Sequence record: NC_049825.1
Length of the DNA stretch: 49,530 bases
Strand: one strand, 5' to 3'
Source of the DNA: Escherichia phage grams
Made by a program: the position numbers and the translations under genes. Each line of letters starts with the position of its first letter. Position 1 is the stretch's first letter. The notes beneath the pieces were generated by a model. The model saw only the letters and a program-made list of their open reading frames with translations, did no database searches and was not told the origin of the DNA. Positions 357-49,256 of this stretch are shown piece by piece.

Positions 357-402
357 ATTATGCCAGGCTTTTACACCTGGCTTTTAACAAAAAGTGCTAT
401 TT
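357..402 (-). promoter_or_regulatory. conserved 22-bp element plus -10 (CATAAT), leftward
   Basis: AAATAGCACTTTTTGTTAAAAG-N18-CATAAT on minus strand; spacer CCAGGTGTAAAAGCCTGG is a hairpin-forming dyad; stop codon of methyltransferase gene lies inside element. Confidence 0.55.
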
Positions 403-1107
403 TGCGTTAGATTCAAAGACTGCGCGAGCAAAACCGCGCGGGGTGAGGGAGCGGATCATCTTTGTGCGCGATGATTTTCCGCCAGTTTTGGCCCAGCCTG
501 GATTATCTTTGTCGTCCTCTTTCGGCAGTATTAAAGCGCGCGGAGGAATAACAAAGCCGTTGCCAGTCCAAAGACATGTTTTCTTAAAGTAGCGATCCCG
601 CGCCGGAATGATATCAGGGAAGTCGGGATGTTTATCATCTTCCGGTAAATATCCGGCGTAATCGCACGGATGGAACGTGTAATCAGGCTTACGCCATAAC
701 GTTGACAGCTTGCCTACAGGATTCTCTATCATGTAAGGAACACCGAAATAATCAGCGATATGCGCGGCTATTTTGCAAGTGTCGGCGGCCTCATTTTGGA
801 AGTTAGGATTTTCCATGCGCTTTTTAGCCCAATGGCGAGATCCGCTGTTTGCTAATTGTGTGCAAGGTGGGAAGGCCATAATGAAATCAGGTTTACCCCA
901 ATTTTCAAGTTTTGCGTTATATTTGAATAGATCATCAATCCACACATTAACGTAAAAAATATTATCATGGATTATGCGCACTGAGTGGTAATCTCCGTGA
1001 TCGGCATCATCGTAATTAAAGCAAATGCATTTATAACCAGCATCAGCCCAATCTTTAACAGCCTTACCAGATCCATCAAACAAAGAGAAAATTAAACCTT
1101 TATACAT
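397..1107 (-). CDS. DNA (cytosine-5)-methyltransferase
   Basis: 236 aa; motif I FSLFDGSGK, catalytic PC motif FPPCTQ, ENV motif MIENPVG in canonical order; RBS GAGGTGA upstream. Confidence 0.75.
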   Translation of the reverse strand: MYKGLIFSLFDGSGKAVKDWADAGYKCICFNYDDADHGDYHSVRIIHDNIFYVNVWIDDLFKYNAKLENWGKPDFIMAFPPCTQLANSGSRHWAKKRMENPNFQNEAADTCKIAAHIADYFGVPYMIENPVGKLSTLWRKPDYTFHPCDYAGYLPEDDKHPDFPDIIPARDRYFKKTCLWTGNGFVIPPRALILPKEDDKDNPGWAKTGGKSSRTKMIRSLTPRGFARAVFESNAK

Positions 1108-1116
1108 TTCATCACC

Positions 1117-1341
1117 TCAAAACGGAAAGCATCGCGCACAGTTAGGATCAAAATTGCAGCCGCAATCATTGACAATCATCGTTGGATCTGCAAATGCAGC
1201 GCCGCATTCATGATCCATATCCATATCACCCAGCGCATCATCAAGCGTCCTGATCTTATATGCAACTTCAAGCGCTGCCTCTTTATTTAATCCTGCATCT
1301 TCAGCCATTTGCAGGCGCTCAAAAAATCCGTCCTGACTCAT
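1117..1341 (-). CDS. hypothetical small Cys-rich protein (74 aa)
   Basis: ORF with C-terminal Cys cluster (HECG...NDCGCNFDPNCARC); start ATG overlaps stop of upstream small ORF (ATGA coupling). Confidence 0.5.
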   Translation of the reverse strand: MSQDGFFERLQMAEDAGLNKEAALEVAYKIRTLDDALGDMDMDHECGAAFADPTMIVNDCGCNFDPNCARCFPF

Positions 1342-1451
1342 TTCATAAGCTCCTTGATAACAACCAGAATAATAGCAAGACCAGCAGTGACAACCAAAAG
1401 ACCAATAAGGCCAATCATCACTCCAAATAAAATATCAAGAAATTTCATCAT
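1338..1451 (-). CDS. small hydrophobic membrane peptide (37 aa)
   Basis: MMKFLDILFGVMIGLIGLLVVTAGLAIILVVIKELMK; RBS AAAGGTGA 6 nt upstream; stop overlaps next start; below size cut-off of the ORF track. Confidence 0.4.
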   Translation of the reverse strand: MMKFLDILFGVMIGLIGLLVVTAGLAIILVVIKELMK

Positions 1452-1498
1452 TATTATCACCTTTATTTAAAGGGAGGCGAAAACCTCCCATTGATTAA

Positions 1499-1726
1499 TC
1501 AGACAGCCTTCCAGCTTTCAATAAACATGCTGTTTTCTTCCAGTAGTTTAATCAATTCTTCGCGTGTATATTTGCGGATTTTACTACCAGGATGCGAGCC
1601 AACAACAAACACACCTTTACCGCTTGTGATTGTTAACTGGTTGATTCCGCAAGATTTATCCATTTTCACGGCGACGCGGTGATGTGCATCAACAGTGTGC
1701 ATGATGTTAGTGATTTTAGCTTTCAT
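1499..1726 (-). CDS. hypothetical protein (75 aa)
   Basis: ORF with RBS GAGGA upstream on minus strand. Confidence 0.5.
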   Translation of the reverse strand: MKAKITNIMHTVDAHHRVAVKMDKSCGINQLTITSGKGVFVVGSHPGSKIRKYTREELIKLLEENSMFIESWKAV

Positions 1727-1900
1727 TATTCAATCCTCATTATATTTAGTGTGGTAACTATGCCAATTTTGCGAAATATTGTTTAACAATTCGTGATATC
1801 AGTTGAAATAGCTATGGCGCTTTGCTCGCTTGTCGTCTCCGCCATAATGATCATTAGAAACTGCAATCATCCAGGCATTATGGAATATTATTAGCTTCAT

Positions 1901-2211: not shown

Positions 2212-2257
2212 AATATATCGGATCGCGAGGATTGAGTTTTAACAAAAAGTGCTATTT
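2212..2257 (-). promoter_or_regulatory. conserved 22-bp element plus -10 (TATATT), leftward
   Basis: AAATAGCACTTTTTGTTAAAAC-N18-TATATT on minus strand; 9-bp inverted repeat AATCCTCGC/GCGAGGATT flanks the -10. Confidence 0.55.
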
Positions 2258-3088: not shown

Positions 3089-3134
3089 ATTATGCCGAAT
3101 CCAGTCAGGCACGTTTTAACAAAAAGTGCTATTT
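3089..3134 (-). promoter_or_regulatory. conserved 22-bp element plus -10 (CATAAT), leftward
   Basis: Minus-strand reading AAATAGCACTTTTTGTTAAAAC-N18-CATAAT. Confidence 0.55.
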
Positions 3135-3786: not shown

Positions 3787-4275
3787 ATGAGCGAAGAAAA
3801 TATTAGCACCATGTCGCGCAGTGAGTTCTGCGATATGCTTCGCACCCTGGGCGCGGCAATTGGTAGCGGTGAACGTAATAATGTATTCATGCCAGCACTT
3901 TTCTTGTGCGCTAACGTGGAGAACGGCGACGCAATTACAGCATCGTACATGCGCCAGGTTGTAAACCGCGTACCAGAAGTGAAGCAAAAAGGCGTGATCA
4001 GCATTAAGCGAAAGGTGACTGATGAGGGTGATGGCTTTGTGTTTACGCTCACAGAAGCCAAAAGCAAGCCACGCGTTCTGACTGGTGAAGAAATCGACGA
4101 GATCGCAGAAAAGCGCGCAGAGAAGGCGGTAAGCAAAATCCTTAATCACCTTGTAAGCGTAATGCCAAATATCACAGACCTGGAAGGCGATAAACTTGCT
4201 GGAGCGTGTGAGGCTATCGGGCGCTACCAGGATATGATTCGTAAACTCGCTGGAGGAAAAGAGGTAAAATTCTAA
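3787..4275 (+). CDS. hypothetical early protein (162 aa)
   Basis: ORF with RBS AAAGGAG; first gene downstream of sigma70 promoter. Confidence 0.6.
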   Translation: MSEENISTMSRSEFCDMLRTLGAAIGSGERNNVFMPALFLCANVENGDAITASYMRQVVNRVPEVKQKGVISIKRKVTDEGDGFVFTLTEAKSKPRVLTGEEIDEIAEKRAEKAVSKILNHLVSVMPNITDLEGDKLAGACEAIGRYQDMIRKLAGGKEVKF

Positions 4276-4319
4276 ATAGCACTTTTTGTCAAAAGTCAAA
4301 AACGATAACCAGGCATAAT
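4274..4319 (+). promoter_or_regulatory. conserved 22-bp element plus -10 (CATAAT)
   Basis: AAATAGCACTTTTTGTCAAAAG-N18-CATAAT; overlaps stop codon TAA of upstream gene. Confidence 0.55.
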
Positions 4320-4374: not shown

Positions 4375-5265
4375 ATGTTAAAACTTACTGACATTAAATT
4401 CCCGATCACCTTCGAATCTCGCGGCGTTGGTCATTTCATGTTTACCGACGAGAAGACATGCACTAAGTTTAACGAATACGGAAGTCCAAACGCTTCAACA
4501 ATGGAGATTGAACACTTCATTGAAGCGCACAATAAACACTACAACTCACTCAGAGACTACGGCTATGCAATGCCAGGATATACCAGCTTACACTACAAGC
4601 CATATAAAGGCCAGGTGCTGCCAGTGCGCTCACCGGAACGCGCAGATATTCCGATGGTAGAAATGAAAACGTGCGACTATAAAAAATTGTGGTGCTTAAG
4701 TGTGGACAATATCAAGTATCCGATCGTATTCCGAACGACTGGTAAATCGACGATTCGCTACACATCTCGCGACAATGGCGTTTATAGCTATGGTACGAAA
4801 TCAGAGTTGAAAGTTGATTTCTTTGTCAACGGTCACAACAAATTCAATCCGCACAACGAAGAGGATAAAGTGTATTACGTGGAAGACATTACAAAACACT
4901 TGTTTGGAGAAACTCCATTCGGCGGCGGAAAGACGTCAATTCAAAAAATCATTGGCGAGGAGATCCACAAAGCGGCTGCCGAAATGAAAGCGCCTGGAGG
5001 CTGGCGTATTGACAAGAGCGCCTTTGCCTATCAAGAAATCGTAACGCAGGGCGCGATTGAAGATATGCCAGTTGCAGCCACGCTAAAAGGAGTCCAGCTT
5101 GATGACGGCACTTGGTATGAATTAACGGCCACACCAAAGACGATCGAAATTCATGATGATGTTGTTATCCTTCTGCTTCACTACGGCGGCACTAAAAACC
5201 GGACTGTTGCAGGTGAGATCAGCATCAAGCGCGGAGCGATGGTTAAGTGGAAGGTCAAAGTGTAA
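4375..5265 (+). CDS. hypothetical protein (296 aa)
   Basis: ORF with RBS CAGGAGAAAG. Confidence 0.65.
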   Translation: MLKLTDIKFPITFESRGVGHFMFTDEKTCTKFNEYGSPNASTMEIEHFIEAHNKHYNSLRDYGYAMPGYTSLHYKPYKGQVLPVRSPERADIPMVEMKTCDYKKLWCLSVDNIKYPIVFRTTGKSTIRYTSRDNGVYSYGTKSELKVDFFVNGHNKFNPHNEEDKVYYVEDITKHLFGETPFGGGKTSIQKIIGEEIHKAAAEMKAPGGWRIDKSAFAYQEIVTQGAIEDMPVAATLKGVQLDDGTWYELTATPKTIEIHDDVVILLLHYGGTKNRTVAGEISIKRGAMVKWKVKV

Positions 5266-5308
5266 ATAGCACGAATTGTTAAAACTCAAATGTGGGGCCA
5301 GGTATAAT
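5264..5308 (+). promoter_or_regulatory. conserved 22-bp element (GAATTG variant) plus -10 (TATAAT)
   Basis: AAATAGCACGAATTGTTAAAAC-N17-TATAAT; -10 flanked by near-dyad GTGGGGCC/GGCCTCAC. Confidence 0.55.
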
Positions 5309-6331: not shown

Positions 6332-6543
6332 TTGTGACGCACGATGTAGAGCCAGGCGCGAGCACTGCGCAGGACATGGTTTCCGGAATGACGCCAAAAT
6401 CGCACAGAATGGTACGCGTGCGCGGTTATAGCTTCAATGTCTCCCAAACACTCAAGGAGATCTTGGCCTTGCCAGAAGTAGATACAGCTCTTGTGGGTGT
6501 GCATACAAACGAATATGTTTCTTTCCACATTGTGACGAAATAG
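6328..6543 (+). CDS. hypothetical protein (71 aa)
   Basis: ORF; ATGA overlap with upstream gene. Confidence 0.5.
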   Translation: MIVTHDVEPGASTAQDMVSGMTPKSHRMVRVRGYSFNVSQTLKEILALPEVDTALVGVHTNEYVSFHIVTK

Positions 6544-6583
6544 CACTTTTTGTTAAAATAGCTTAACGGGCTTGCTGTATAGT
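6538..6583 (+). promoter_or_regulatory. conserved 22-bp element plus -10 (TATAGT)
   Basis: AAATAGCACTTTTTGTTAAAAT-N18-TATAGT; stop TAG of upstream gene inside element. Confidence 0.55.
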
Positions 6584-7254: not shown

Positions 7255-7845
7255 ATGAAACGCGACATTATCATCCTTAACGGACCGCCAGGAGTTGGCA
7301 AGGATACGCTTGCGGCATACTTAACGGGCCATCGTTACGCAGCCGTTAAAGCGTCGTTTAAACAGCCTATGTTTGATATTGCGTTTTCCATGCTTGGCGT
7401 TTACCGATATGACGAGTTCATTGATCTGTATAACGACCGCGAGCAGAAAGAAAAGCCTCAAGCAATCTTGCAAGGCAAGTCGCCTCGCCAGTTCATGATC
7501 TGGATTAGCGAAGAAGTTATGAAGCCAGCTTTTGGTGAGCAATATTTCGGAAATCGCATGGTTGAGCAAGTACACGAGATGTACAGAGATTTAGCTGTTG
7601 TAATTAGTGATGGCGGATTCCCTGAAGAAATCAAGTCGCTAGTTAAGGCAGGCCATGAAGTGCATATTTGCCGACTGCATCGCGAAGGCTTCACGTTTGA
7701 TGGCGATTCACGAAACTATATTGACCTGAGCGGATACCATCACCGAGTAAAACATTACGACTTCACGATGATTGATGGCGATCCAGAAAAGACTGTTGAC
7801 GAGATCATCAAAACTGTCCAGTGGCAACACATCAAGATCAAATAG
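7255..7845 (+). CDS. deoxynucleoside monophosphate kinase-like P-loop kinase
   Basis: Walker A LNGPPGVGKDT; blocks YAAVKASFKQPMFDIAFSMLGV and VISDGGFPEEIKSLVKAGHEVHICRL recalled as similar to T4 gp1 dNMP kinase. Confidence 0.55.
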   Translation: MKRDIIILNGPPGVGKDTLAAYLTGHRYAAVKASFKQPMFDIAFSMLGVYRYDEFIDLYNDREQKEKPQAILQGKSPRQFMIWISEEVMKPAFGEQYFGNRMVEQVHEMYRDLAVVISDGGFPEEIKSLVKAGHEVHICRLHREGFTFDGDSRNYIDLSGYHHRVKHYDFTMIDGDPEKTVDEIIKTVQWQHIKIK

Positions 7846-7885
7846 CACGAATTGCTAAAAGCGGGGCGCAATGCCTCGCTATAAT
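7840..7885 (+). promoter_or_regulatory. conserved 22-bp element (GAATTG variant) plus -10 (TATAAT)
   Basis: AAATAGCACGAATTGCTAAAAG-N18-TATAAT; stop TAG inside element. Confidence 0.55.
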
Positions 7886-8899: not shown

Positions 8900-9208
8900 A
8901 TGGCTAAAAGCAATCGTAAAATGTTGATTAACGCATTCGAAAAGGCAGCACTTGAGCGTGGTTGGAATGACTCATTTCACACAGCAAACTGTATCCGCCG
9001 TTACGGATTCAAGAATTGCCGCTCATGGGCGCGTGAAATGGCTTCATGGTATGATTTTGATGCTCATTATCTTGATATGGATTGCGCCATGGTTGAAATG
9101 GATTGCGCCATGGTTGAAATGATTGAGCAGGCCGCACTAGAGGATCGACCATTAACGCAATCTGATTTTGACGATTTTGTGCGCGATGAAATCTATTACA
9201 TGAGCTAA
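8900..9208 (+). CDS. hypothetical protein (102 aa) containing an in-frame 21-bp tandem duplication
   Basis: ATG at 8900 with RBS AAAGGAGGAAACAAA; duplicated peptide MDCAMVE. Confidence 0.5.
   Translation: MAKSNRKMLINAFEKAALERGWNDSFHTANCIRRYGFKNCRSWAREMASWYDFDAHYLDMDCAMVEMDCAMVEMIEQAALEDRPLTQSDFDDFVRDEIYYMS
9079..9120 (+). repeat. perfect 2 x 21-bp tandem direct repeat inside CDS
   Basis: GGATTGCGCCATGGTTGAAAT repeated twice. Confidence 0.9.
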
Positions 9209-9251
9209 TAGCACTTTTTGTTAAAACTTCCGCGAGGGCATTTGTTAAAGT
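9206..9251 (+). promoter_or_regulatory. conserved 22-bp element plus -10-like TAAAGT
   Basis: TAATAGCACTTTTTGTTAAAAC-N18-TAAAGT (preceded by TG); stop TAA inside element. Confidence 0.5.
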
Positions 9252-11846: not shown

Positions 11847-13414
11847 TGCTGATTTGGGAAGACTTAACAGCGGCGCAGAAACGCGCCGTTAAGGAAATGA
11901 GCGAATATTCATTCGAAAAGATGATCCGCATTTGGTTTCAATTATTGCAAGGTCAGAAATTCTTAGGAAACTGGCATTTCAGCTACCTATGTAGCGAAGT
12001 TGAAAAAATCATCAAAGGCGAGTCACAGAACGTAATTTTCAACATAACGCCAGGCAGCGGTAAAACAGAGATATTCTCGATCCATATGTCACCTTATGCG
12101 TCATTGAAAAGTAAGAAGGTGCGAAATCTTAATCTTTCGTTTAGTGATGGCCTTGTCCAGCAGAATAGTAACCGAATTAAGGAGATTATTGGTTCTCCAG
12201 AATGGCAGGAGCTATGGCCAGGAAAGCTGGCAAAGGCGAGCGCAAAGGATTTGATTGTAACCGATGGCGGCAAGGTTAAGTTACAAGTTAACTCGCGTTC
12301 TATCGGTGGTCAGGTTACTGGTCTGCGTGGCGGCTACATGGACGATGGATTTACTGGTATGCTGGTTCTTGATGATCCAGACAAGCCGGATGACATGCTT
12401 TCTAAGGTGAAGCGCGAAGCCGGACACATGCGCCTAAAGAACACGGTGCGATCGCGTCGAATGAAGGACACAACGCCCATCGTAATGGTCCAGCAACGGC
12501 TACACGTCAATGATTCAACATGGTTCATGACAAACGGCGGCATGGGCGGCATACAGTTTAAGGTGGTTAGTATTCCGGCGCTCGTTACTAAGGAATATCG
12601 CGAAACGCTTCCTGATTGGTTAAAGCCTGAGTTTGATCGCGATGTTTTGTCCAGTAAGCCAGTGATGATTGATGGAGTTGCTCATTATTCATTCTGGCCT
12701 GCTAAGGAAAGCGCGGAGGAATTGCTTGCGCTTCGAAATGCTGATCCGTACACGTTCGCTAGTCAGTATCAGCAACAGCCTGTTGCGCTTGGCGGTAACG
12801 TGTTTAAAACAGAGTGGTTTCAGTATTACGGCAGCAGCGAGAAATGCACGCTACCAAAACCGGATCGCTTTGAATATACATTTATCACGGTTGATACCGC
12901 ACAGAAAACAGGGGATCTTAACGACTACTCCGTGATCTGTTATTGGGGGATGTATAAAGATCGCGTTTACTTCATTGATGGTGTTCGCGGAAAATGGGAA
13001 GCACCAGACCTTGAGACTAATTTTGTTGCGTTCGTTAATCAGTGCTGGAAGCGCAATAAAGAATGCGGAACGTTGCGAAGGATTCATGTTGAAGATAAAT
13101 CGTCTGGCACTGGTTTGATTCAGAGTGCAGCGAAAAAAATAATGATCAAGATCAATCCCGTTCAGCGCGATAAAGACAAGGTTACTCGTGCAATGGACGC
13201 AGCGCCAGTAATGCGCGCCGGACGCGTAGCACTTCCAGAATCGCATCCTATGCTGGCTGAGATACTCGCTGAAGTTGCGGCGTTTACATTCGATGATTCG
13301 CATCCTCATGATGATATTGTTGATAACATCATTGATGCGGTTAACATTGAAATGAACATGGCAGATGATCCGGTAGGAAGAATGAAAAAATTGGCAGGTT
13401 TGCGGAACAAATAG
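11846..13414 (+). CDS. terminase large subunit
   Basis: 522 aa; P-loop ITPGSGKTE; N-terminal ATPase and C-terminal nuclease-sized domains; position before portal. Confidence 0.8.
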   Translation: MLIWEDLTAAQKRAVKEMSEYSFEKMIRIWFQLLQGQKFLGNWHFSYLCSEVEKIIKGESQNVIFNITPGSGKTEIFSIHMSPYASLKSKKVRNLNLSFSDGLVQQNSNRIKEIIGSPEWQELWPGKLAKASAKDLIVTDGGKVKLQVNSRSIGGQVTGLRGGYMDDGFTGMLVLDDPDKPDDMLSKVKREAGHMRLKNTVRSRRMKDTTPIVMVQQRLHVNDSTWFMTNGGMGGIQFKVVSIPALVTKEYRETLPDWLKPEFDRDVLSSKPVMIDGVAHYSFWPAKESAEELLALRNADPYTFASQYQQQPVALGGNVFKTEWFQYYGSSEKCTLPKPDRFEYTFITVDTAQKTGDLNDYSVICYWGMYKDRVYFIDGVRGKWEAPDLETNFVAFVNQCWKRNKECGTLRRIHVEDKSSGTGLIQSAAKKIMIKINPVQRDKDKVTRAMDAAPVMRAGRVALPESHPMLAEILAEVAAFTFDDSHPHDDIVDNIIDAVNIEMNMADDPVGRMKKLAGLRNK

Positions 13415-13440
13415 CACGAATCGACAAACCAATATATAAT
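13409..13440 (+). promoter_or_regulatory. degenerate copy of conserved element
   Basis: AAATAGCACGAATCGACAAACC followed directly by TATAAT and then a terminator hairpin; architecture differs from other copies. Confidence 0.3.
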
Positions 13441-13444
13441 CAAA

Positions 13445-17665: not shown

Positions 17666-17687
17666 CGTTTAACAAAAAATGCTATCA
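17666..17687 (-). promoter_or_regulatory. conserved element in orientation opposite to flanking late genes
   Basis: Plus strand reads GTTTAACAAAAAATGCTATCA; no well-spaced -10 on minus strand. Confidence 0.35.
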
Positions 17688-21401: not shown

Positions 21402-21447
21402 ATGCTACACGATTCATAATCAATTCTTTTAACAAAAAGTGCTATCA
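21402..21447 (-). promoter_or_regulatory. conserved element plus -10 (TAGCAT) pointing leftward, antisense to late genes
   Basis: Minus-strand reading TGATAGCACTTTTTGTTAAAAG-N18-TAGCAT. Confidence 0.4.
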
Positions 21448-27329: not shown

Positions 27330-27363
27330 TCAACAAATTAAATAGCACAAAAGGTGAAAAAGC

Positions 27364-32222: not shown

Positions 32223-32267
32223 ACTATACACGATCTTACAGCAGGCGTTTAGCAAAAAGTGCTATTC
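32223..32267 (-). promoter_or_regulatory. conserved 22-bp element plus -10 (TATAGT), leftward
   Basis: GAATAGCACTTTTTGCTAAACG-N17-TATAGT on minus strand, upstream of lipoprotein gene. Confidence 0.5.
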
Positions 32268-33754: not shown

Positions 33755-33835
33755 ACAGCACAAATAGCTAAACAAATGAAAAATGCGGTGTTATAATTCA
33801 CCGCATAAGTTAACAACAAGCGTGAGGAAATAAAC

Positions 33836-36401: not shown

Positions 36402-36450
36402 TATCTCGCCCTCTTGATGAAAAGCGCCCCGAAAGGCGCTTGATTTATTA

Positions 36451-37152: not shown

Positions 37153-37330
37153 AGTAAATTCCTCTTTGACGTTAAAAAAATTAAAAAAAGTTTGCAACAT
37201 TTATGTTACGACAAAGAGTATGCGCCAAATTACCAGGAATAGATATAAAACATTTGTAAGCGATATGTCAGCAAATGGCATAAAGACGAAAAAAGGCGCA
37301 GCCGTAGCAGCGCCTTGTGATTATTTTTTG

Positions 37331-38698: not shown

Positions 38699-38761
38699 GC
38701 GTTTTCTCCCATGTTGCATGTTAATGTCAATGCAGATAATAGCATTTGCTAAGGCCAAAAA

Positions 38762-38780
38762 AAACCCCGCAATGCGGGGT
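38762..38780. terminator. hairpin terminator
   Basis: A-run then CCCCGCAATGCGGGG. Confidence 0.5.
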
Positions 38781-38796
38781 AAAGTAGCAGTGACAT

Positions 38797-39729
38797 TTAG
38801 AGAAGTGATTCAGGCTTGAAAACCTTCCTCTCTATCCCTTGCCTGTAATTATCATTAATCGGCATCATAATTTCAAGTCCTCTTTCCTCGGCAGCAATGA
38901 TCGCGTCACGATCTGTGCTCTTACAGACAACTCGCATTCTTCTGTTGCCTTTATACCTGTAAGCTACAATCTCAATGTTAGTTGCATCAAAGCAGGCCCA
39001 AACCTCCTGACCAGTTGCAAGGTGAATATGTTGCGCATCAATCCAGTCAACGCAAAGATAGATAGTCTTATCTGTACTTCCGGTTCTAACAATCGACCCT
39101 CGCGTGTAGTCCTTTGCTAGAAAAGACTGATTACCTTCTTCATCAATGAAAAGCACATTGCACATTTCATCATCAATTTCATCTGAATGTACCAGGTAAC
39201 ATGGTAACGCGTGAATGTATCGACCATCTTTAACGCCGCATTCATAATAACCATCTTCAGGAGGATATATCCCTTCATAGGTGCTTAGCGGCGTGCGATC
39301 AAATTTTAGTGTTTTTGACATAACGCGCTCGCAGCATTCATGGCTTGCCTGTTTCCCGAACGAATAACCAGAATCACGAGATACTCGCTTATTTGCCTTG
39401 ATCCTATAGTCCTGCGGAACTTTTCCAAGAAATCGGCCCAAAATATTGATCACTTCGCTGTAAGGTTCTCCGGTTAGCTTCATGATCCAACCAATTCCGG
39501 TATCATTACCGCACACGTTGCAGATCGCACCGCCATCGCCTTTTTTATCGCCAAGTTTATCCGTCCATCTGAAGCGATCCTTTCCGCCGCAGTTGGGGCA
39601 AGATTGATGCTTGCCGTTAAAAACTTCATTTGGAAGACCGCAAATACTTTGTAGCGCCTCACGCCACAATCCTTGCATATATGGGAGAACATCTTCCTTT
39701 TGATAAACCATAAAGTTTTCGTTATTCAT
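38797..39729 (-). CDS. DNA primase (zinc-finger type)
   Basis: ATG at 39729 with RBS GAGGTG; [12 protein letters not shown]...CNVCG zinc-binding motif. Confidence 0.6.
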
Positions 39730-39783
39730 ATACACCTCAAACAAAAAGCCTGACAGATGATAACATCATGCCAGGCATTGTTT

Positions 39784-40257
39784 TTAGCAATTAGTGCTTT
39801 CAGGTTTATACAGGAATCCGCCAGGTTCATAATCTGACATTCTTACCACTCGCAACATTTCACGCTTATCACATCTCTTTGTGAGCGGTTTACCATTGGA
39901 ATCAAATCGCAGATCTGGACGGCAGAATGACGCGCGATAGCCTTGGCAGCCATATTTTTTGTAATCGTTATGCACCTTTTGAGCGCCAGCGGCTGAAATC
40001 ATACCGCGAACACGCCACTGATTTACAGTTTGCTGGCTAACGTTAAGACGTTTTGCCATTGCTGACACACTTCCGTAATACTCAATAAGGATATCAAGTC
40101 GCGCTTTTAGCCCGGCACGCACCTCATCTTTTAAAACATAGTATCCTGTAGGGCGCTTGCGCTTTTTCTTATCTTTACCCCGTCGAGTTCCGTTATTGCC
40201 ATTAATTGTGCGCTTGTCAATCTTTCCTGTTGATACTGCGATTCGCTGTTCTTTCAT
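39784..40257 (-). CDS. HTH DNA-binding regulator
   Basis: 157 aa; helix-turn-helix AKRLNVSQQTVNQWRVRG; basic N-terminal region; RBS GGAGAA. Confidence 0.6.
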   Translation of the reverse strand: MKEQRIAVSTGKIDKRTINGNNGTRRGKDKKKRKRPTGYYVLKDEVRAGLKARLDILIEYYGSVSAMAKRLNVSQQTVNQWRVRGMISAAGAQKVHNDYKKYGCQGYRASFCRPDLRFDSNGKPLTKRCDKREMLRVVRMSDYEPGGFLYKPESTNC

Positions 40258-40268
40258 TATTCATTCTC

Positions 40269-40314
40269 CAATAGCATTTTTTGTTAAACGATGATTTAAT
40301 GATTGTGTATTATA
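40269..40314 (+). promoter_or_regulatory. conserved element (variant) plus -10 (TATTAT) for helicase operon
   Basis: CAATAGCATTTTTTGTTAAACG-N17-TATTAT. Confidence 0.5.
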
Positions 40315-40336
40315 CACGCCAAATGGCATTACTCAA
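40309..40336 (-). promoter_or_regulatory. sigma70 promoter for regulator/primase operon
   Basis: Minus strand TTGAGT-N16-TATAAT with TG extension; -10 lies in near-palindrome GTGTATTATACAC. Confidence 0.5.
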
Positions 40337-40346
40337 AGGTTTTAGA

Positions 40347-42392: not shown

Positions 42393-42798
42393 TAAAGGCG
42401 ATTATCTGGAGTTTTACGAAAGAGATCCGACAGATACGCTAAAAGAGGAATCTCACCAGATCGGGGCGTTTCAATGGTTAACTTATGCTCATCCTGAATT
42501 ACTGGCATGGCATACGAAAAACGAGGGCGACAAGGGGATCGCCACCGCAATGATGGATCAGCAAGCTGGGCTTGTTAAGGGCGTAAGTGATTTTATCATC
42601 CTGATTGGATTAAAAGGTCGTTACCCGTTCGCGGCAATTGAGATGAAGCGCGTCAATAAGTCCGGCAAGGGTAAGGCTTCACCAGTCAGCAAGGACCAAA
42701 AAGCCTTCTTGCGTCGTGTGCGTGAGCTTGGCGGATTCGCTGCCGTAACATACGGATATAAGCAATTCATGATCGCGGTAGAATACATGATGAAATAG
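42379..42798 (+). CDS. VRR-NUC domain nuclease
   Basis: 139 aa; SDFIILIG...AIEMK block fits PD-(D/E)XK of VRR-NUC; overlaps helicase stop. Confidence 0.55.
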   Translation: MAMTDKGDYLEFYERDPTDTLKEESHQIGAFQWLTYAHPELLAWHTKNEGDKGIATAMMDQQAGLVKGVSDFIILIGLKGRYPFAAIEMKRVNKSGKGKASPVSKDQKAFLRRVRELGGFAAVTYGYKQFMIAVEYMMK

Positions 42799-42838
42799 CA
42801 CTTTTTGTTAAAACAGGCGCGAAGGATTGCGCCATAAT
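42793..42838 (+). promoter_or_regulatory. conserved 22-bp element plus -10 (CATAAT)
   Basis: AAATAGCACTTTTTGTTAAAAC-N18-CATAAT; spacer contains GGCGC...GCGCC dyad; stop TAG inside element. Confidence 0.55.
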
Positions 42839-42872
42839 AACGCCAGTTCAACAAGCAACAGGTAATTAAGAA

Positions 42873-43574
42873 ATGAGTAAAGAAACTGAAGTGACATTTG
42901 AACAAATAGAACGCGAAACATTCATTGGCAATGCTCTTGCTACTGGTGGTCATTACCAGGCTGTTAAACCAAATCAATATTTCAAAGTGACTGGCAACCG
43001 CTATAACGGCAGCAATACGCCGGACATTGTGCGCGATTTGTGGTCTACTCCGTATGAGCTTGTCGCATGGATGGAAAGTGAATACGGTGATTATGACATC
43101 GACGCGGCTGCAAGCAAAGAAAATGCTGTATGTGAAAAATTCTACAGCAAGGAAACAAATTGCTTAAAGCGTTGGTGGGGTAGTAACAAGCATATATGGC
43201 TTAATCCACCGTACAGCAATATTACGCCATTTGTTAAGAAGGCGATTGAGCAAATGGAGCACAACAACCAGATCGACATGCTGTTACCTTGCGACACATC
43301 AACAGGATGGTTTTATGAAGCGCAACAGCGCGCAGCGGAAATCATCTGGATCACTGGCGAAGTTTACCAGGAAGACGGAACAGAATATTCCCGCACAGGA
43401 CGCCTTGCGTTTACCTCTGCTCTTACAGGTAAACCAGTGCAGGGCAACAACAAAGGCAGCGTTATTTTCATCATGCGCGAACTAAAAGAAGGTGAGCAGC
43501 AGAAAACGCGATACGTTAAAATCAGCGACATTTGCCCTTCGGTGGCAGACCGTCGCGCACGGAAACGGAGCTAA
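42873..43574 (+). CDS. DNA N6-adenine methyltransferase (Dam-like)
   Basis: 233 aa; NPPY catalytic motif (WLNPPYSN); RBS AAGAAATG context. Confidence 0.7.
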   Translation: MSKETEVTFEQIERETFIGNALATGGHYQAVKPNQYFKVTGNRYNGSNTPDIVRDLWSTPYELVAWMESEYGDYDIDAAASKENAVCEKFYSKETNCLKRWWGSNKHIWLNPPYSNITPFVKKAIEQMEHNNQIDMLLPCDTSTGWFYEAQQRAAEIIWITGEVYQEDGTEYSRTGRLAFTSALTGKPVQGNNKGSVIFIMRELKEGEQQKTRYVKISDICPSVADRRARKRS

Positions 43575-43578
43575 AACC

Positions 43579-43836
43579 ATGCAGAAAGAAAGAAGAGTTT
43601 TACTTAATGAAGATGGCGAATTTCTTTTGTATCGCGCTATGGTATGCGATGCACTTGATAAAAACCCTAACGTGAAAAAGATGATTGATTGCGATCCGTG
43701 GGAATTTTCAAGCGCATTAGATATGAGCTTTGAGGAGACAAAAAAACTCCCGCTTGAAAAATGGCACGAACAAATCAGAAATGACATGCAAGAATTTGTC
43801 GATTCTTGGAATTTTAAGAACGGAATGATCCACTAA
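43579..43836 (+). CDS. hypothetical protein (85 aa)
   Basis: Internal ATG of track ORF with RBS GGAGC. Confidence 0.45.
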   Translation: MQKERRVLLNEDGEFLLYRAMVCDALDKNPNVKKMIDCDPWEFSSALDMSFEETKKLPLEKWHEQIRNDMQEFVDSWNFKNGMIH

Positions 43837-43879
43837 TAGCACTTTTTGTTAAAACGCCCGGCCTTGTGTCGGGCATAAT
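43834..43879 (+). promoter_or_regulatory. conserved 22-bp element plus -10 (CATAAT)
   Basis: TAATAGCACTTTTTGTTAAAAC-N18-CATAAT; spacer GCCCG...CGGGC dyad; stop TAA inside element. Confidence 0.55.
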
Positions 43880-43911
43880 TATTTCATCAAAACGAACAAG
43901 AGGAAAACAAA

Positions 43912-44091
43912 ATGGTTGTTTACGATCCACGCGCTTTTAAAATTGCTCAAGAAGTTTCACGCGAATCTGTTGCTGGCGGTTCGGTTAACGGCTATCAGTT
44001 TGATTGGTCGGCAGCAATGACCTTGCTTAAGGTTGCATATGGTCACGCGCCAATTGAAACAGCGGAGGAATATTATAAGCATGAAGGTTGA
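43912..44091 (+). CDS. hypothetical small protein (59 aa)
   Basis: Strong RBS AAGAGGAAAACAAA; below track cut-off. Confidence 0.4.
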   Translation: MVVYDPRAFKIAQEVSRESVAGGSVNGYQFDWSAAMTLLKVAYGHAPIETAEEYYKHEG

Positions 44092-44323
44092 ACAAGGTAG
44101 GCAGGCTGTATGGGATCACGCAAAGGAATGCGGGATCGCAGAAGACATATCCAGGATAGCGAAATATTTTGATATTGCTGACATAAGCATTATCAGCGGC
44201 GACAAAATGACATTTCTCAATGAACGCCCGCGCAAGATGCATCGTGTCCCAGCAATACCAACAAAGATTGATTTCAAAGAGGCTATGGCGAAAATTCGCG
44301 AGCCGCGCAAATACTACAAATGA
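44081..44323 (+). CDS. hypothetical protein (80 aa); start uncertain (44039 or 44081)
   Basis: In frame with track ORF 44033..44323. Confidence 0.4.
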   Translation: MKVEQGRQAVWDHAKECGIAEDISRIAKYFDIADISIISGDKMTFLNERPRKMHRVPAIPTKIDFKEAMAKIREPRKYYK

Positions 44324-44421
44324 GGATTATTATCATGTGGCGTTTGTTACTTTTGCCCTTACCTGTTATGATGTCGATCTCTATTGTATATGTTGTCATA
44401 ATGAGATAAGGAGAATTTTTG

Positions 44422-45537
44422 ATGAAGCAAATCAAAATCACAGATGAACAATTTATCAATGAGCGCAAGCAGGGAAAGACATATAAGCAGATCGCTAATG
44501 AGTATGGCATGAACGTTCGCAGCATTGAGCGCCGCGCAGCACGACTTGCAAAGAAGGGAGAGATTGACACAAAAGGTGCGCCAGGATTTGGGATTGCTCG
44601 TGAATCTGTTTTACGACGCGCCAACGGTGAAGAAGTAATGAGATGGACAATCACCACTCGCGACAAAGAACAGTTAGAAGCATTAATGCAGGCCGCTATT
44701 GATGCATTTAGCGAAGAAGTCCCTCGACTTGATCCGCAGCAAGAATCACAAAAGGATTATAGCGAGACGTTATCACTGTATCCGATCTTTGATATGCACC
44801 TGGGCGCAATGGCGCATAAGCATGAATGCGGCGAGAATTGGGATACAGCAACAGCAGAGCGCGTAATGAATAATTTCATTGACTATTCCATCCAGTGCGC
44901 GCCGGATAGTGAAAAAGCTGTTTTGCTGATTGGTGGTGATATGCTTCACAGCGACGGACTGGAAGCGGTAACACCTGCAAGCGGTCACGTATTGGATCAA
45001 GATAGTCGATACGCAAAACTGGTTTACGTTGCCATCCGGTCAGTGCGTCGAGCAATCACAAAGCTGTTATCAAAACACAAAAACGTAGAGATTCAGATCA
45101 TTGAAGGCAACCACGACCAAAGCGGCATGATCTGGTTGCGCGCAGCAATGGCGGCAGCATATGAGAATGAGCCGCGAGTGCATGTTGATGTGTCTCCGCG
45201 AGTAGTTCATCACACACAATATGGCAAAACGTTCCTGGCATACCATCACGGGCATACTATCCGCAAACCTGAAACATTGCTCATGATGTGCGCGGCAGAC
45301 TGGCGCGAAGATTTCGGCAATTCAAAAATGATGTATGCTCACGTAGGGCACTGGCATCATCAGACAGTAACTGAAACAAGCCTTGGCATTGTTGAAGTGC
45401 ATAGCACTATGGCGGCAAAAGATGCATATGCTGCGCGCGGTGGATGGCGTTCTCGTCGCCGTGCGGCTGTTATTGTTTATGATAAAGAATACGGAGAAGT
45501 AGGGCGATTTATGCATTATCCAGAAATGGCTGGTTGA
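44422..45537 (+). CDS. metallophosphoesterase with N-terminal HTH-like domain
   Basis: Calcineurin-like motifs DMHLG, GGDMLH, GNHD, GHWHH; N-terminal YKQIANEYGMNVRSIERRAARL; RBS AAGGAG. Confidence 0.6.
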   Translation: MKQIKITDEQFINERKQGKTYKQIANEYGMNVRSIERRAARLAKKGEIDTKGAPGFGIARESVLRRANGEEVMRWTITTRDKEQLEALMQAAIDAFSEEVPRLDPQQESQKDYSETLSLYPIFDMHLGAMAHKHECGENWDTATAERVMNNFIDYSIQCAPDSEKAVLLIGGDMLHSDGLEAVTPASGHVLDQDSRYAKLVYVAIRSVRRAITKLLSKHKNVEIQIIEGNHDQSGMIWLRAAMAAAYENEPRVHVDVSPRVVHHTQYGKTFLAYHHGHTIRKPETLLMMCAADWREDFGNSKMMYAHVGHWHHQTVTETSLGIVEVHSTMAAKDAYAARGGWRSRRRAAVIVYDKEYGEVGRFMHYPEMAG

Positions 45538-45579
45538 ACTTTTAATCATTAAAATATAAATATAAATCATCAATTTAAT

Positions 45580-45612
45580 TGGGCGTGGCATTTTGCTTCG
45601 CCCTTTTTTTAT
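45580..45612 (+). terminator. intrinsic terminator
   Basis: GGGCG...CGCCC stem plus T-run. Confidence 0.6.
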
Positions 45613-45683
45613 TCCTTTTTGTGCGTTCAATGGTTAGGATACAATCAATTAATTGTTGACTTTTATCTACAGGAGATCTAATT

Positions 45684-45899
45684 ATGAAAGATTTTTTAAA
45701 CGCTGCAACTTCCGGCACTGGCGGCGCGTCAATCACTGGCGCGGTAACTGGTCAAACAACTATTGCAATAGCCAGCTTCGTTTTGATGGCTGCATTTGGT
45801 ATGTGGGGCGCTTATCTTCGTTGGCGTGATAGTAAGGCGCTACGTGACGCGCTTGAATGCGGTGATATTAAGAAGGCTATTGAAATCAGGGGTAAATAA
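45684..45899 (+). CDS. holin (pinholin-like)
   Basis: 71 aa; Gly/Ala/Thr-rich hydrophobic segments; directly upstream of endolysin; RBS CAGGAG. Confidence 0.6.
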
Positions 45900-46387
45900 T
45901 GAGCATAAAACAAAGAGTGACCGCTGCGGCTTTTGGCGTTGCTCTTGCTCTTACTTCTCCATTACTGGAGGAAATAGAAGGAGTAAAATATAAGCCGTAC
46001 AAAGATATTGCTGGAATATGGACGGTTTGCGCCGGAATAACTGGACCTGACGTAATACTAGGTAAGACGTACACACAGAGAGAGTGCGATGCGCTACTGG
46101 CAAAGCATATCAAGATCGCAAAGGATGAAGTTGATAAGCGCGTGAAGGTTGATATTCCTGATACAATGCGCGCGGCAATGTATTCATTCACGTATAATGC
46201 TGGCACTGGTGCTTTTAGAAATTCAACCATGCTTAAGCTGATTAATAAAGGCCGTTACATGGAAGCGTGCGATCAGTTATGGCGATGGACCAAATACACC
46301 AATCCAAAAACAGGAAAGAAAGAAACGTCTAAAGGACTGCGCAACCGCCGCGCCGTGGAATTTAAATATTGCATTAAGGAACTGTAA
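45899..46387 (+). CDS. SAR endolysin (lysozyme)
   Basis: 162 aa; weakly hydrophobic N-terminal segment [17 protein letters not shown]; E-x8-D-x5-T catalytic spacing; sequence recalled as closely resembling phage 21 R. Confidence 0.8.
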
Positions 46388-47006: not shown

Positions 47007-47043
47007 GATGTTTTCCTTCTGGTCGTTTCGTTTCGATGAAACA

Positions 47044-47089
47044 AATATACCCGATACGAGATCGGGTGTTTTAACAAAAAGTGCTATTC
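47044..47089 (-). promoter_or_regulatory. conserved 22-bp element plus -10 (TATATT), leftward
   Basis: GAATAGCACTTTTTGTTAAAAC-N18-TATATT; spacer CCCGAT...ATCGGG dyad. Confidence 0.55.
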
Positions 47090-47204
47090 AATACGCTTTA
47101 CAGTAACCAACAAAACGCCGTCATCATCACACAAATTATGCTCTGATATATCAAACGCTCGCATGTCAGAATGAATGAGCGTTAACATTGCGTGCATGAA
47201 GTCG

Positions 47205-47597
47205 TCATGTGAGATTGAACTTACGGCGCAGAACTTCAATATTTTGTCTATTAGCATTTGACGTAAACAATTCTTCATCGCTCATTTCTCCGATCCGTAA
47301 AACATCCCTTACCCATTCGTTTTGCATACCTTCCAGGCTGTAAAGTTCAAACGAGAAAGGGCGATTTGCTGATCCTTTCTTACACCAGAACTTTCCACCA
47401 ACTCCATCAAGATAACCAGCGGTCATCATTCTTGCGCAAAATTCTTTTGAAACGGCAGTTGCAAACGTCCTCGGAGTAAATCCTGCGGCCCTTGCGAGCC
47501 GCTCACATTCTCTGTGCTGAAAGATAAATTTTGCTATATGTTGACGTGTAAACCACTCGAATGACTCACACCAGCGATACAGATCCAGAAGAAACAT
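47205..47597 (-). CDS. hypothetical protein (130 aa)
   Basis: ORF; start overlaps stop of upstream gene. Confidence 0.5.
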   Translation of the reverse strand: MFLLDLYRWCESFEWFTRQHIAKFIFQHRECERLARAAGFTPRTFATAVSKEFCARMMTAGYLDGVGGKFWCKKGSANRPFSFELYSLEGMQNEWVRDVLRIGEMSDEELFTSNANRQNIEVLRRKFNLT

Positions 47598-47599
47598 AA

Positions 47600-49183
47600 T
47601 TACCCTAGCAATGTTGGATTTACGAAAACAACACCATTAATTACACAAATATAATTTCTTTCCTCAAGCATCGGAAGCAGTTGCGTTTCCATGCGCTTCA
47701 TTACTCCAGCCTGGCCAACAAAAGGCTTAACTTTTCGTGCAGCCTCGTATATTGCGCGCACATTCAAGATCCCCTTGTTAGCCTTACCGTGTCGAGTGAT
47801 GATCTCGATTAGTTTACCCATTTCAGCATCATCACCAGCATAGCCAGAAGCGTTGGCGGCGCTAATGTATGTTTTGCTCAACTCGCTAAACATCAGCAGT
47901 GCTTCCTGAACGGTTTCAACCTCAATCTCTTTCGACTTCTGAGGGTATCCACCAGGATTAAACCAATTGCGGATAGTGTGCAAAACCGAAGCAATCCTTA
48001 TCACCTGCTTATCCATTTTGCCAAGCGCGCCGCGCAGCATTGTATGCGAATACTTTCCTCCATCGGCAAGGTGCGGCTCCATCTCCTGACGAGCCATGTT
48101 AAGCACTCGCATTGCTGATTTGCTGATCTTAAGCTGGATGTTTGATTCGCTCATTATGTTATGGATCAGCTTAAAATATTGGCTTTTCAGTTCTCCATCA
48201 ACAGGTTCATAAGTCGAATCACCGTTATCATCAACAAATTTTCGACGACCTAAAAATGATTCTTCACGCACAAGCAAATAACGTTCACTCACACCGATAC
48301 CGCGCGATCCTGCATCCATGATGGCATTAATTGTTTCATCCTGAGCAATTACTGCCATACAGCCAAGAGCTTTAAAACTCATGTTATTGTCTGCGTTTGC
48401 GCGAGCTATAGAAACATGACCGTGATCCCATGCTTTTAGCACAAGTTCGCTGTTTGTTTTGCGTTCGCTATTGGCATATGTCAGACCTAAAAGGCTGTTA
48501 ATACTCGTTGCCTCGTCTGAAATTACAGCAAAGTTACCCTGGCGATTGTTGATTCTTGCAAGTCCTTCAGGCGTGGTGTCTGAAACAGGGAAAACAATGT
48601 CACACATCTTTTCCAGCTTTTCTTCAAGATCTTCTTTCTCCTGGTATAGCGATTCCATATCAGCACCAGATCGCTCGCTCTTCATCTCTTTTGCAAGACC
48701 TGCCAACTTTGCCTGAATCTTTTTCCGCTCCTTCTTTCGCTGATCATTAATCCTTTCCACTTCAGCAACCATAGGAGCAAGAGCCAGGCTGTTAACGGCA
48801 GATTTACCAGTTGAAGGAGGCTGGCTTGTGACAACATAAAGAGCGGTTGGCTGATCCGTTCCGTGATACTCAACCGTGAATCGCCCAAGCATTGCAGCAG
48901 ACACACAGCCGATAAAATGCATATATGCCGATGATTCAGGGAATTGAACAGATCGAGCAATGTTTCGCGCCAACTTTCCAACAACATCAACATCATTGCC
49001 AAGAGAAATTACAGGGTAGCGATCGTTTCCGTTATTAACATCATTAACCTCACCCCAAAAGCTGGACGATTGACGGTATCCGTTAGCCTGAATGGACACG
49101 CGCACCGGAGACAATCCTTGTGCATCAGCTAATTCGATAATTTGTTTTGGTGTTAGTTTATTGGTTTCAAACGAAAAATTCAT
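47600..49183 (-). CDS. P-loop ATPase, replication-associated candidate
   Basis: ATG at 49183 with RBS AAAAGGAG; Walker A-like SQPPSTGKS and Walker B-like VISDE. Confidence 0.55.
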   Translation of the reverse strand: MNFSFETNKLTPKQIIELADAQGLSPVRVSIQANGYRQSSSFWGEVNDVNNGNDRYPVISLGNDVDVVGKLARNIARSVQFPESSAYMHFIGCVSAAMLGRFTVEYHGTDQPTALYVVTSQPPSTGKSAVNSLALAPMVAEVERINDQRKKERKKIQAKLAGLAKEMKSERSGADMESLYQEKEDLEEKLEKMCDIVFPVSDTTPEGLARINNRQGNFAVISDEATSINSLLGLTYANSERKTNSELVLKAWDHGHVSIARANADNNMSFKALGCMAVIAQDETINAIMDAGSRGIGVSERYLLVREESFLGRRKFVDDNGDSTYEPVDGELKSQYFKLIHNIMSESNIQLKISKSAMRVLNMARQEMEPHLADGGKYSHTMLRGALGKMDKQVIRIASVLHTIRNWFNPGGYPQKSKEIEVETVQEALLMFSELSKTYISAANASGYAGDDAEMGKLIEIITRHGKANKGILNVRAIYEAARKVKPFVGQAGVMKRMETQLLPMLEERNYICVINGVVFVNPTLLG

Positions 49184-49210
49184 TGATGATAACTCCTTTT
49201 TGATGCGGCA

Positions 49211-49256
49211 ATAATACCGCACCAATGCTACCCGCATTTAACAAAAAATGCTATTT
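49211..49256 (-). promoter_or_regulatory. conserved element (variant) plus -10 (TATTAT), leftward
   Basis: AAATAGCATTTTTTGTTAAATG-N18-TATTAT; ATGCGG/CCGCAT dyad flanks spacer and -10. Confidence 0.5.

Follow-up and report, generated by a model that had tools for sequence, protein, structure and literature searches.

Does the short sequence that recurs in the intergenic gaps of Escherichia phage grams (NC_049825.1) define a dedicated class of promoter, and if so, what would act on it? The genome is 49,530 bp long with 44% G+C, apparently whole and circularly permuted, and was analyzed over its full length (referred to here as the window); no tRNA genes were found in this 49,530-bp window. Phage grams is a T1-like virulent siphovirus (Drexlerviridae, Tempevirinae) near Hanrivervirus, and its first 12 kb shares ~92-93% identity with Escherichia phage herni, Shigella phage pSf-1, and other Hanrivervirus phages. 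A sequence-only reading had listed ~17 copies of a 22-bp element at a fixed distance from -10 hexamers, and proposed a dedicated, possibly activator-dependent promoter class resembling the promoter-early-stem-loop (PeSL) cassettes of T4-type phages. The repeat is real and non-random, and it has already been published; its reading as a binding site for MarA, SoxS, and Rob (a marbox), host activators of stress responses and antibiotic resistance, is the one we favor here.

A repeated intergenic element shared by T1-like phages

A search of the window with the 22-mer, allowing ≤3 mismatches, returned 12 matches compared to 0.01 expected, and looser scans recovered all of the ~17 copies listed previously, bringing the total to ~21. 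All of the earlier coordinates are real, although four copies had been missed, at 1780-1799, 17666-17687, 21426-21447, and 39781-39802, each on the minus strand. The copy described as degenerate at 33762 is actually complete, although divergent: the box occupies 33755-33774 (ACAGCACAAATAGCTAAACA), and TGtTATAAT follows it at 17 bp. The copy at 13409 is indeed degenerate, a relic with an ordinary terminator downstream, and that at 27340 is partial as described, overlapping the next gene's ribosome-binding site and lacking a -10. In 17 copies a -10 hexamer lies 17-18 bp downstream, followed by C-1/A+1, a leader, a Shine-Dalgarno sequence, and an ATG. No Rfam family matched in the window.

The repeat was described in the 2024 re-annotation of phage TLS, where 18 intergenic 21-nt copies of aaATAGCACnnnTTGnTAAAA are oriented with transcription and lie ~76 nt upstream of start codons; that paper reports the repeat also in T1, Rtp, and Rogue1, divides it into TTT, GAA, and AAA subgroups, and lists its function as an open question, suggesting a stoperator, an enhancer site, or a UP element (PMC11447400). 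Our literature search found nothing further on the element beyond the TLS paper. We assembled a family set by scanning IMG/VR with ATAGCACNNNTTGNTAAAA, which yielded many 41-52-kb contigs with several copies each; the IMG/VR loci, T1, and the window together provided 289 non-redundant copies, which were aligned on the element to give a logo.

The element lies at a fixed distance from an extended -10 hexamer

Among the 289 copies, a -10-like hexamer lies exactly 18 bp after the element in 78%, and within +/-2 bp of this position in 89%, compared to 10.7% at random positions; the motif and its -10 spacing are both conserved across related phages. The logo 3′ of the element reads T-15 (0.47), G-14 (0.77), any base, and TATAAT (A 0.84, final T 0.85), beginning 18 bp past the 22-mer, with C-1 (0.67) and A+1 (0.76) 6-7 nt past the hexamer, which is an extended -10 with a predicted start at C-1/A+1. 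Numbered from A+1, ATAGCAC occupies -50 to -44 and TTGnTAAAA -40 to -32; the element as a whole spans -52 to -31, as in the sequence-only reading. The center of the box falls at -40.5 to -41.5, with its A-box (GCAC) at -47 to -44 and its B-box (TAAA) at -36 to -33. The 18-bp spacer (-30 to -13) is G+C-rich and variable in sequence, TG is often present at -15/-14, and the TATAAT-like hexamer (-12 to -7) is followed by a C-rich discriminator (-6 to -1) and A at +1.

The ATG lies 20-32 nt past the predicted start in 14 co-oriented copies (49 nt at 4274), and the distance from box start to ATG is ~75 nt, within a cassette of ~90 bp in all. Most modules have an A/C-rich leader of ~25 nt, with AUCGAAACGA(A) at +1 to +12 (e.g., 43886-43900 and 47037-47023) and a composition of 0.76 A at the start and then C/G/A-rich with A at 0.6-0.7; AUCGAAACGA might enhance translation or act as a signal within the initially transcribed sequence.

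A canonical -35 is absent, as had been noted: the hexamer at the -35 position is TAAAAC, with 2/6 consensus matches. We considered TTGnTA as a -35 and rejected it, with 21-22 bp to the -10 and no -10 at 17 bp downstream. The -10-like hexamer 17-18 bp after the 22-mer, previously counted in 13/14 co-oriented copies, is seen in 14/14, the weakest being TAAAGT at 9206, and the window shows no enrichment of canonical sigma70 promoters (33, 31, and 14 found versus 36, 39, and 22 in shuffles). Sigma54 promoters have GG and GC exactly 10 bp apart. Compared with the sigma54 pattern (TGGCAC-N5-TTGCW), the element, TAGCAC-N3-TTGC, has AG for GG, is 2 bp short, and is followed by a sigma70 -10, and this candidate was discarded; so too were sigma28, sigma32, OmpR, IHF, Fis, and CRP/FNR, which have the wrong spacing or match poorly.

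Logos anchored on either half show that the two halves of the element are always paired, and that variation is confined to the three bases at its center (TTT, GAA, or AAA-type) and a single C/T position. The stop codon of a long upstream open reading frame (ORF) falls within 13 of the copies, as claimed earlier, in the form of tAA at offset 0/1 (the 5′ edge) or the TAG of ATAGCAC at offset 4; in box numbering, TAG is at 2-4, TAA at 15-17, and tAA just upstream. The element alone shuts two reading frames (TAG, and the TAA of TTAAAA), and the third too if T precedes it.

We have little doubt from this anatomy that the element is a promoter module. The proposed dedicated class without a -35 and the gene-cassette layout both stand, and dependence on an activator is very probable; what does not carry over is the likeness to PeSL, which is an analogy only.

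The box matches the MarA/SoxS/Rob consensus in micF-like geometry

The binding consensus of MarA, SoxS, and Rob is AYNGCACNNWNNRYYAAAYN (PMC2064960; PMC3709825), which we scored as AYnGCACnnWnnRYYAAAYn, with 14 specified positions. Scanning with the consensus alone (≤1 mismatch) identified 21 window sites compared to 1.42 expected and recovered every copy; it also catches the divergent boxes ATATCACGAATTGTTAAAC and ACAGCACAAATAGCTAAAC, and divergent copies such as the latter differ only at consensus-degenerate positions. Eighteen of 19 window boxes score 13-14/14, with the box at 39781 scoring 12/14, and the probability that a random 20-mer scores at least 13/14 is 7e-6. The typical copy, ATAGCAC-TTT-TTG-C/T-TAAAA-C, scores 13/14, its sole mismatch (A for Y at position 19) being common to the E. 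coli micF site; the crystallized reference sites (Rob-micF and MarA-mar; sequences from PMC8279559) likewise score 13/14, and the window boxes share 14-16/20 bases with them. The element positions that vary in the 289 copies are those that are degenerate in the consensus, with A/T at W, C/T at Y, and changes at N positions.

The geometry also corresponds. In E. coli MG1655, the micF box ACAGCACTGAATGTCAAAAC is on the RNA strand, with 18 bp between it and the -10 TAGAAT, and is centered at -41.5 relative to the annotated 5′ end, and the phage boxes have the same orientation and the same 18-bp spacing. Class II promoters of this family have a forward box over the -35, centered near -41, a canonical -10 and start, and no recognizable -35 (mean of 1.9 matches), and structures show that the activator displaces sigma70 region 4 from the -35 (PMC10268841; PMC9638938; PMC12052159; PMC8811837). 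The phage modules have the consensus box, its forward orientation, the micF spacing, the missing -35, and the canonical -10 and start, with starts being predicted. We think it probable that the element is a near-consensus marbox/soxbox/robbox of a class II, micF-type promoter acting by a MarA-family mechanism, and we put this no more strongly because the evidence consists of sequence and geometry only. GCAT replaces GCAC in the A-box of the helicase promoter (40271), in the capsid promoter spacer (17666), and in the promoter of the 545-aa ORF (49235); because single A-box changes are reported to lower Rob affinity 7- to 100-fold (PMC8279559), these may be graded, lower-affinity sites.

The same promoter anatomy invites another account, without any MarA-family activator, in which host RNA polymerase alone reads the element as UP-like on an extended -10 promoter, or some phage protein redirects sigma70. 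Unmodified host polymerase has to suffice at early phage promoters, an extended -10 (TG in about half of the copies, G-14 in 77%) can act without a -35, and the element has A/T tracts, the TLS authors having themselves proposed a UP-like element. UP elements, however, are A/T-rich sites for the C-terminal domain of the polymerase alpha subunit (alpha-CTD) that occupy -59 to -38, 5′ of a -35; the element does not match their consensus, is at -52 to -31, and has no -35 downstream; TTGnTA, at 21-22 bp from the -10, is too far away to serve as one. The invariant G/C positions (GCAC, and G at position 13) point to major-groove reading and not to alpha-CTD, and the 13-14/14 marbox match and micF-identical spacing would be left unexplained. 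We regard action by polymerase alone as unlikely.

The marbox match can also be compared with those for other host proteins, the best of which is Lrp (yAGhAwATTwTdCTr, from systematic evolution of ligands by exponential enrichment; PMC5554404). Typical copies match this consensus at 12-13/15 positions by hand alignment, and Lrp is conserved across the hosts; however, the match is weaker than that to the marbox and falls to 11/15 by hand alignment in divergent boxes, positions that are loose in the Lrp consensus are invariant in the phage, and no fixed Lrp-promoter geometry is known that would explain the 18-bp spacing. Lrp, or another host protein outside the MarA family, seems a most improbable reader of the element.

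The copies in the window are as follows, with the class II assignment being putative and start sites (+1) predicted:

381..402, minus strand: class II box module; -10 CATAAT 362..357, +1 ~350, ATG 325; marbox 13/14, holding the TAG stop of the upstream 236-aa methyltransferase ORF.
1780..1799, minus strand: class II box module ATATCACGAATTGTTAAACA; -10 CATAGT 1762..1757, +1 ~1750, ATG 1726; found by the consensus and geometry scan.
2236..2257, minus strand: class II box module; -10 TATATT 2217..2212, +1 ~2205, ATG 2194; 22-mer scan and geometry.
3113..3134, minus strand: class II box module; -10 CATAAT 3094..3089, +1 ~3082, ATG 3050; 22-mer scan and geometry.
4274..4295, plus strand: class II box module with a B-box, GTCAAAAG, like that of micF; -10 CATAAT 4314-4319, +1 ~4326, ATG 4375; indel boundary versus four relatives at 4259-4264.
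5264..5285, plus strand: class II box module, GAA variant; -10 TATAAT 5303-5308 enclosed by a hairpin, +1 ~5315, ATG 5339; indel boundary at 5258/5264.
6538..6559, plus strand: class II box module; -10 TATAGT 6578-6583 enclosed by hairpin GGGCTT/AAGCCC, +1 ~6590, ATG 6615; boundary of a window-specific gene at 6538.
7840..7861, plus strand: class II box module, GAA and TTGCTA variant; -10 TATAAT 7880-7885, +1 ~7892, ATG 7916; looser scan and geometry.
9206..9227, plus strand: class II box module; weak -10 TAAAGT 9246-9251 after TGt, +1 ~9258, ATG 9284; 22-mer scan and geometry.
32246..32267, minus strand: class II box module with a perfect 14/14 marbox; -10 TATAGT 32228..32223, +1 ~32216, ATG 32191; looser scan and marbox score.
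33755..33774, plus strand: divergent but perfect marbox; the loop of a hairpin contains TGtTATAAT 33792-33797, ATG 33836; T1 (31443) and Klebsiella phage MezzoGao carry this variant too.
39781..39802, minus strand: 12/14 box in the gap separating the regulator gene from the primase gene; TGtTATCAT 39762..39757 sits within the loop of a hairpin that resembles a terminator and precedes a T-run; ATG 39729; looser scan.
40269..40290, plus strand: class II box module of the helicase gene, GCAT variant; -10 TATTAT 40308-40313, ATG 40347; also in the leader of the divergent regulator gene, an arrangement conserved in the family.
42793..42814, plus strand: class II box module; -10 CATAAT 42833-42838, +1 ~42845, ATG 42873, with a hairpin in the spacer; 22-mer scan.
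43834..43855, plus strand: class II box module; terminator-like spacer hairpin 43856-43874, -10 CATAAT 43874-43879, +1 ~43886, ATG 43912; 22-mer and terminator scans.
47068..47089, minus strand: class II box module; terminator-like spacer hairpin 47067..47049, -10 TATATT 47049..47044, +1 ~47037, ATG 47006; 22-mer and terminator scans.
49235..49256, minus strand: class II box module, GCAT variant; -10 TATTAT 49216..49211, +1 ~49204, ATG 49183 of the 545-aa ORF (relatives annotated as DNA helicase); 22-mer scan.
17666..17687, minus strand: reversed box in a plus-strand sigma70 promoter (TTGCAC 17661-17666, 16 bp, TGcTATCAT 17680-17688), with ATG 17733 at the position of the T1 major head protein gene; the same in T1.
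21426..21447, minus strand: reversed box directly 5′ of the Shine-Dalgarno sequence of a plus-strand tail gene (ATG 21459) and 3′ of a sigma70-like TGTACA-16-CATAAT; conserved in T1 (18831-).
13409..13430, plus strand: degenerate box with the terminase stop codon and no -10 at the right distance; ordinary terminator at 13442-13464; looser scan.
27340..27361, plus strand: partial box over the ribosome-binding site of the 1192-aa large tail-tip gene (ATG 27364), without a -10; conserved in T1 (25021-25040).

The partial box at 27340, like that at T1 25021, is either a relic or a regulatory site.

Candidate activators

A Pfam scan of 52 non-structural ORFs in the window identified no AraC-family protein. 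One candidate came from Pantoea phage vB_PagM_AAM37 (a Dibbivirus myovirus, as also PSKM and DIBBI), which has ~8 modules with a box, hairpin, and -10 in its early region (32330-46364) and shares the T1-like helicase/regulator/primase block. AAM37 gp49 (36758-37168) is a MarA-sized, 136-aa AraC-family protein that has a pair of helix-turn-helix (HTH) motifs (Pfam HTH_18, 1.8e-14; best PDB match MarA, 1.4e-6), and its stop codon sits in a box. Searches of the phage collection by tblastn with the MarA core and with AAM37 gp49 matched 88 and 24 records, respectively, with no T1-like phage among the matches listed; the organism breakdown of the 24 records shows no gp49 homologue in T1-like phages, for which 841 records hold the family HTH regulator. 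Gp49 was set aside as the cognate activator, as the A-box contact residues of MarA are not conserved and no T1-like homologue was found.

Phages infecting E. coli, Shigella, and Klebsiella, as well as the Pantoea myovirus, have the box unchanged, and such constancy among phages that differ in host and in regulator is consistent with a conserved host protein. Because T1-like phages appear to encode no MarA-like protein, the activator would likely be the constitutive Rob of the host, or induced MarA, SoxS, or RamA (RamA in Klebsiella). The wider proposal, that most non-structural promoters of Drexlerviridae (including Klebsiella Webervirus) and of an unrelated Pantoea myovirus genus are wired to host Rob/MarA/SoxS/RamA, is one that we advance tentatively, with confidence somewhat short of even.

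Several points weigh against a host MarA-family activator. The marbox is low in information content and abundant in genomes, and the phage shows almost no variation at several positions where the consensus is unconstrained (A at 3, TT at 11-12, and A at 19); the stop-codon role accounts for part of this invariance, and the rest could reflect another binder or homogenization by recombination. Rob is reported to be mostly sequestered when inducers are absent (PMC12052159). MarA and SoxS levels are low in unstressed cells, yet T1-like phages grow well in ordinary cultures, so the promoters may have substantial activator-independent activity via the extended -10. In addition, the AraC-family protein of AAM37 does not clearly support the marbox link, and our limited literature search found no mapped start sites for a T1-like phage.

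The phage regulator and the divergent helicase promoter

The window encodes a single predicted transcription regulator, a Cro/YdaS-like HTH protein of 157 aa (39784-40257, minus strand; T1 gp23) with an invariant N-terminal motif, DKRxxNGNNGTxRGxD, and a CRPDL motif. Within 40258-40346, the helicase promoter is divergent from that of the regulator (TTGAGT-16-TATAAT, minus strand), the two have a palindromic -10 in common, TATTATA (GTGTATTATACAC), and the helicase box lies at ~+12 to +33 of the regulator transcript, beside its Shine-Dalgarno sequence. This overlapping divergent -10 layout, conserved in 14 loci from multiple genera, resembles a competitive or autoregulatory switch.

The location of a box in its own leader, in a conserved arrangement with overlapping divergent -10s, raises the question of whether this regulator, a core gene of the family (841 records), binds the element itself, as a dimer at the dyad TAGCA-N5-TGCTA near -42, activating or repressing; a 5+5 bp inverted repeat is indeed present when position 13 is C. 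However, the dyad in the window is imperfect (TTGTTA) and its flanks asymmetric, and divergent, functional-looking boxes break the dyad and keep the marbox consensus. Moreover, the predicted recognition helix varies (VSQQTVNQW, VTHQTIQQW, VTRQAVEEW, and VTTKVVTGW; IPFSGVRSW in the Pantoea phage) while the element is constant, for which reason we demoted the dyad and the Cro-like regulator; binding of the element by this protein is improbable. Because the helix differs between genera, the regulator's DNA target is probably not the invariant box.

We note that ~20 records labeled Campylobacter phage (e.g., MG065638.1, 'Campylobacter phage A15a') encode a regulator 100% identical to that of phage grams; these are probably contaminant or mislabeled T1-like sequences.

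Reversed boxes in the late region

Two late-region boxes are on the opposite strand from their neighboring genes, and both are conserved in T1 (15067-15086 and 18831-18850). The reversed box upstream of the major capsid gene supplies the spacer, TGn, and TAT of a canonical sigma70 promoter, TTGCAC-16-TGcTATCAT in the window and TTGACG-16-TGcTATTAT in T1 (box 15067-). A marbox in the promoter spacer is reported to mediate direct repression at E. coli pbpG (PMC12052159), and the boxes at 17666 and T1 15067 are similarly placed in a sigma70 promoter spacer, although repression is reported for pbpG and is a prediction for the phage late promoters. The reversed boxes suggest repression by whatever binds the box; given the pbpG case, the factor is perhaps dual-acting, and we speculate that it both activates early promoters and holds back late ones.

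Hairpins and cassette boundaries

The 31 nt from the box to +1 fold with a mean of -7.8 kcal/mol, compared to -3.4 to -3.9 in column-shuffled controls, which argues for complementarity within each copy with the sequence free to vary. In most copies, the 5′ arm is at -24 to -16, TGnTAT is in the loop, and the C-rich discriminator forms the 3′ arm, which ends at -1; these hairpins wrap the -10, lack a U-tract, and are followed by AUCGAAACGA. In 44 of 231 strong hairpins, the structure lies wholly in the spacer with the -10 as a U-rich tail, and the terminator scan picked out two such hairpins in the window as terminator-like. Transcripts begun at a module exclude the hairpin, whereas read-through from upstream includes it; because only read-through RNA contains the hairpin, its presence weakly suggests that it terminates, insulates, or stabilizes the 3′ ends of upstream transcripts. 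In the regulator-primase gap (39729-39802), the hairpin GCCTGGCA...TGTCAGGC is followed by TTTTTGTTT and has the -10 TATCAT in its loop; here, upstream transcripts should stop and transcripts started inside should escape.

We also aligned the first 12.5 kb of the window with herni, pSf-1, aaroes, and damhaus; in this one region and these four relatives, 4/17 breakpoint clusters fall in modules, against a module share of 6.2% of the sequence (p=0.018), and indels end exactly at the 5′ edge of the box at 4259-4264, 5258/5264, and 6538. These alignments modestly support a PeSL-like gene-shuffling role for the modules, compatible with their promoter role. They also bear on the possibility that the elements are chiefly recombination joints, or the repressor stoperators suggested by the TLS authors, with the promoter incidental: the three indel boundaries, the excess of clusters in modules, the closing of reading frames by the element, and the reversed boxes inside late promoters would all fit. 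Most breakpoints, however, are elsewhere, and the spacing to the -10, start, leader, and ATG in 78-89% of the 289 copies is what a promoter needs. As the chief function these roles are very improbable; they are compatible with a marbox promoter and do not replace it.

A proposed mechanism and its implications

From the box match and its geometry, the missing -35, and the conserved -10, start, and hairpin, we infer a mechanism in which a monomeric, two-HTH activator of the MarA/SoxS/Rob/RamA type would bind the box in place of the contact between sigma70 region 4 and the -35, and recruit host RNA polymerase to the extended -10. The box also ends the upstream ORF through its stop codons, and the hairpin, in the spacer or around the -10, would act on read-through transcripts from upstream only.

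If this mechanism is correct, phage genes would be expressed more strongly under host stress and in multidrug-resistant mar/ram/sox mutants, the activator would, through the reversed boxes, also repress the capsid and tail genes, and replication, by multiplying the boxes, would titrate the activator and time the early-to-late switch. Phage development would be tied to the switch by which resistant clinical strains increase efflux and reduce porins; in phage therapy, resistant marR, ramR, and soxR mutants might be better hosts for T1-like Klebsiella and E. coli phages, and salicylate, bile, and oxidants might modulate infection. The module would also be a compact, portable, activator-responsive promoter cassette. 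To our knowledge, this would be the first virulent phage family with promoters dependent on the host mar/sox/rob regulators.

Comparison with known systems

The TLS repeat is the same element, intergenic and gene-oriented, and the window matches its description in every respect; the difference is that the passages searched in the TLS paper draw no link to a fixed-distance -10, a marbox, a hairpin, or stop codons (PMC11447400).

The closest promoters are those of the micF type in class II, which likewise have a 20-bp asymmetric forward box replacing the -35, 18 bp to the -10, and a center near -41. Unlike the host sites, the phage boxes are present in ~17-21 copies in 49.5 kb, are nearer to the consensus and to each other, and are fused to an upstream stop codon, a hairpin, and a conserved leader; host binding to them is predicted.

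At T4 middle promoters, a MotA box replaces the -35, the sigma70 -10 is kept, and T4 encodes both MotA and its co-activator AsiA. The likeness is that of an activator box in place of the -35 with a sigma70 -10 retained, but the MotA box is centered at -30 and is used with T4's own proteins, and the sequences, positions, and proteins are unrelated. A PmSL variant is also mentioned (PMC4122927).

The PeSL cassettes of T4-type phages combine a near-consensus sigma70 promoter (TTGACA-N17-TATAAT) with a terminator stem-loop (PMC2839356; PMC4122927). Like these, the phage modules are small, repeated cassettes of promoter and stem-loop between small variable early genes, some indel boundaries lie on them, and a minority of their hairpins are terminator-like, with the -10 as a U-rich tail. 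PeSL has a -35, however, whereas the phage modules are without one, with TTGnTA 21-22 bp from the -10; the phage hairpins mostly wrap the -10 and lack a U-tract, the association with breakpoints is modest, and the phages are of another family. The resemblance proposed in the sequence-only reading extends to the cassette layout and, modestly, to indel behavior, and fails for the near-consensus sigma70 promoter, which is absent. The likeness to PeSL lies in lifestyle, not in mechanism, and the phage module is loosely PeSL-like.

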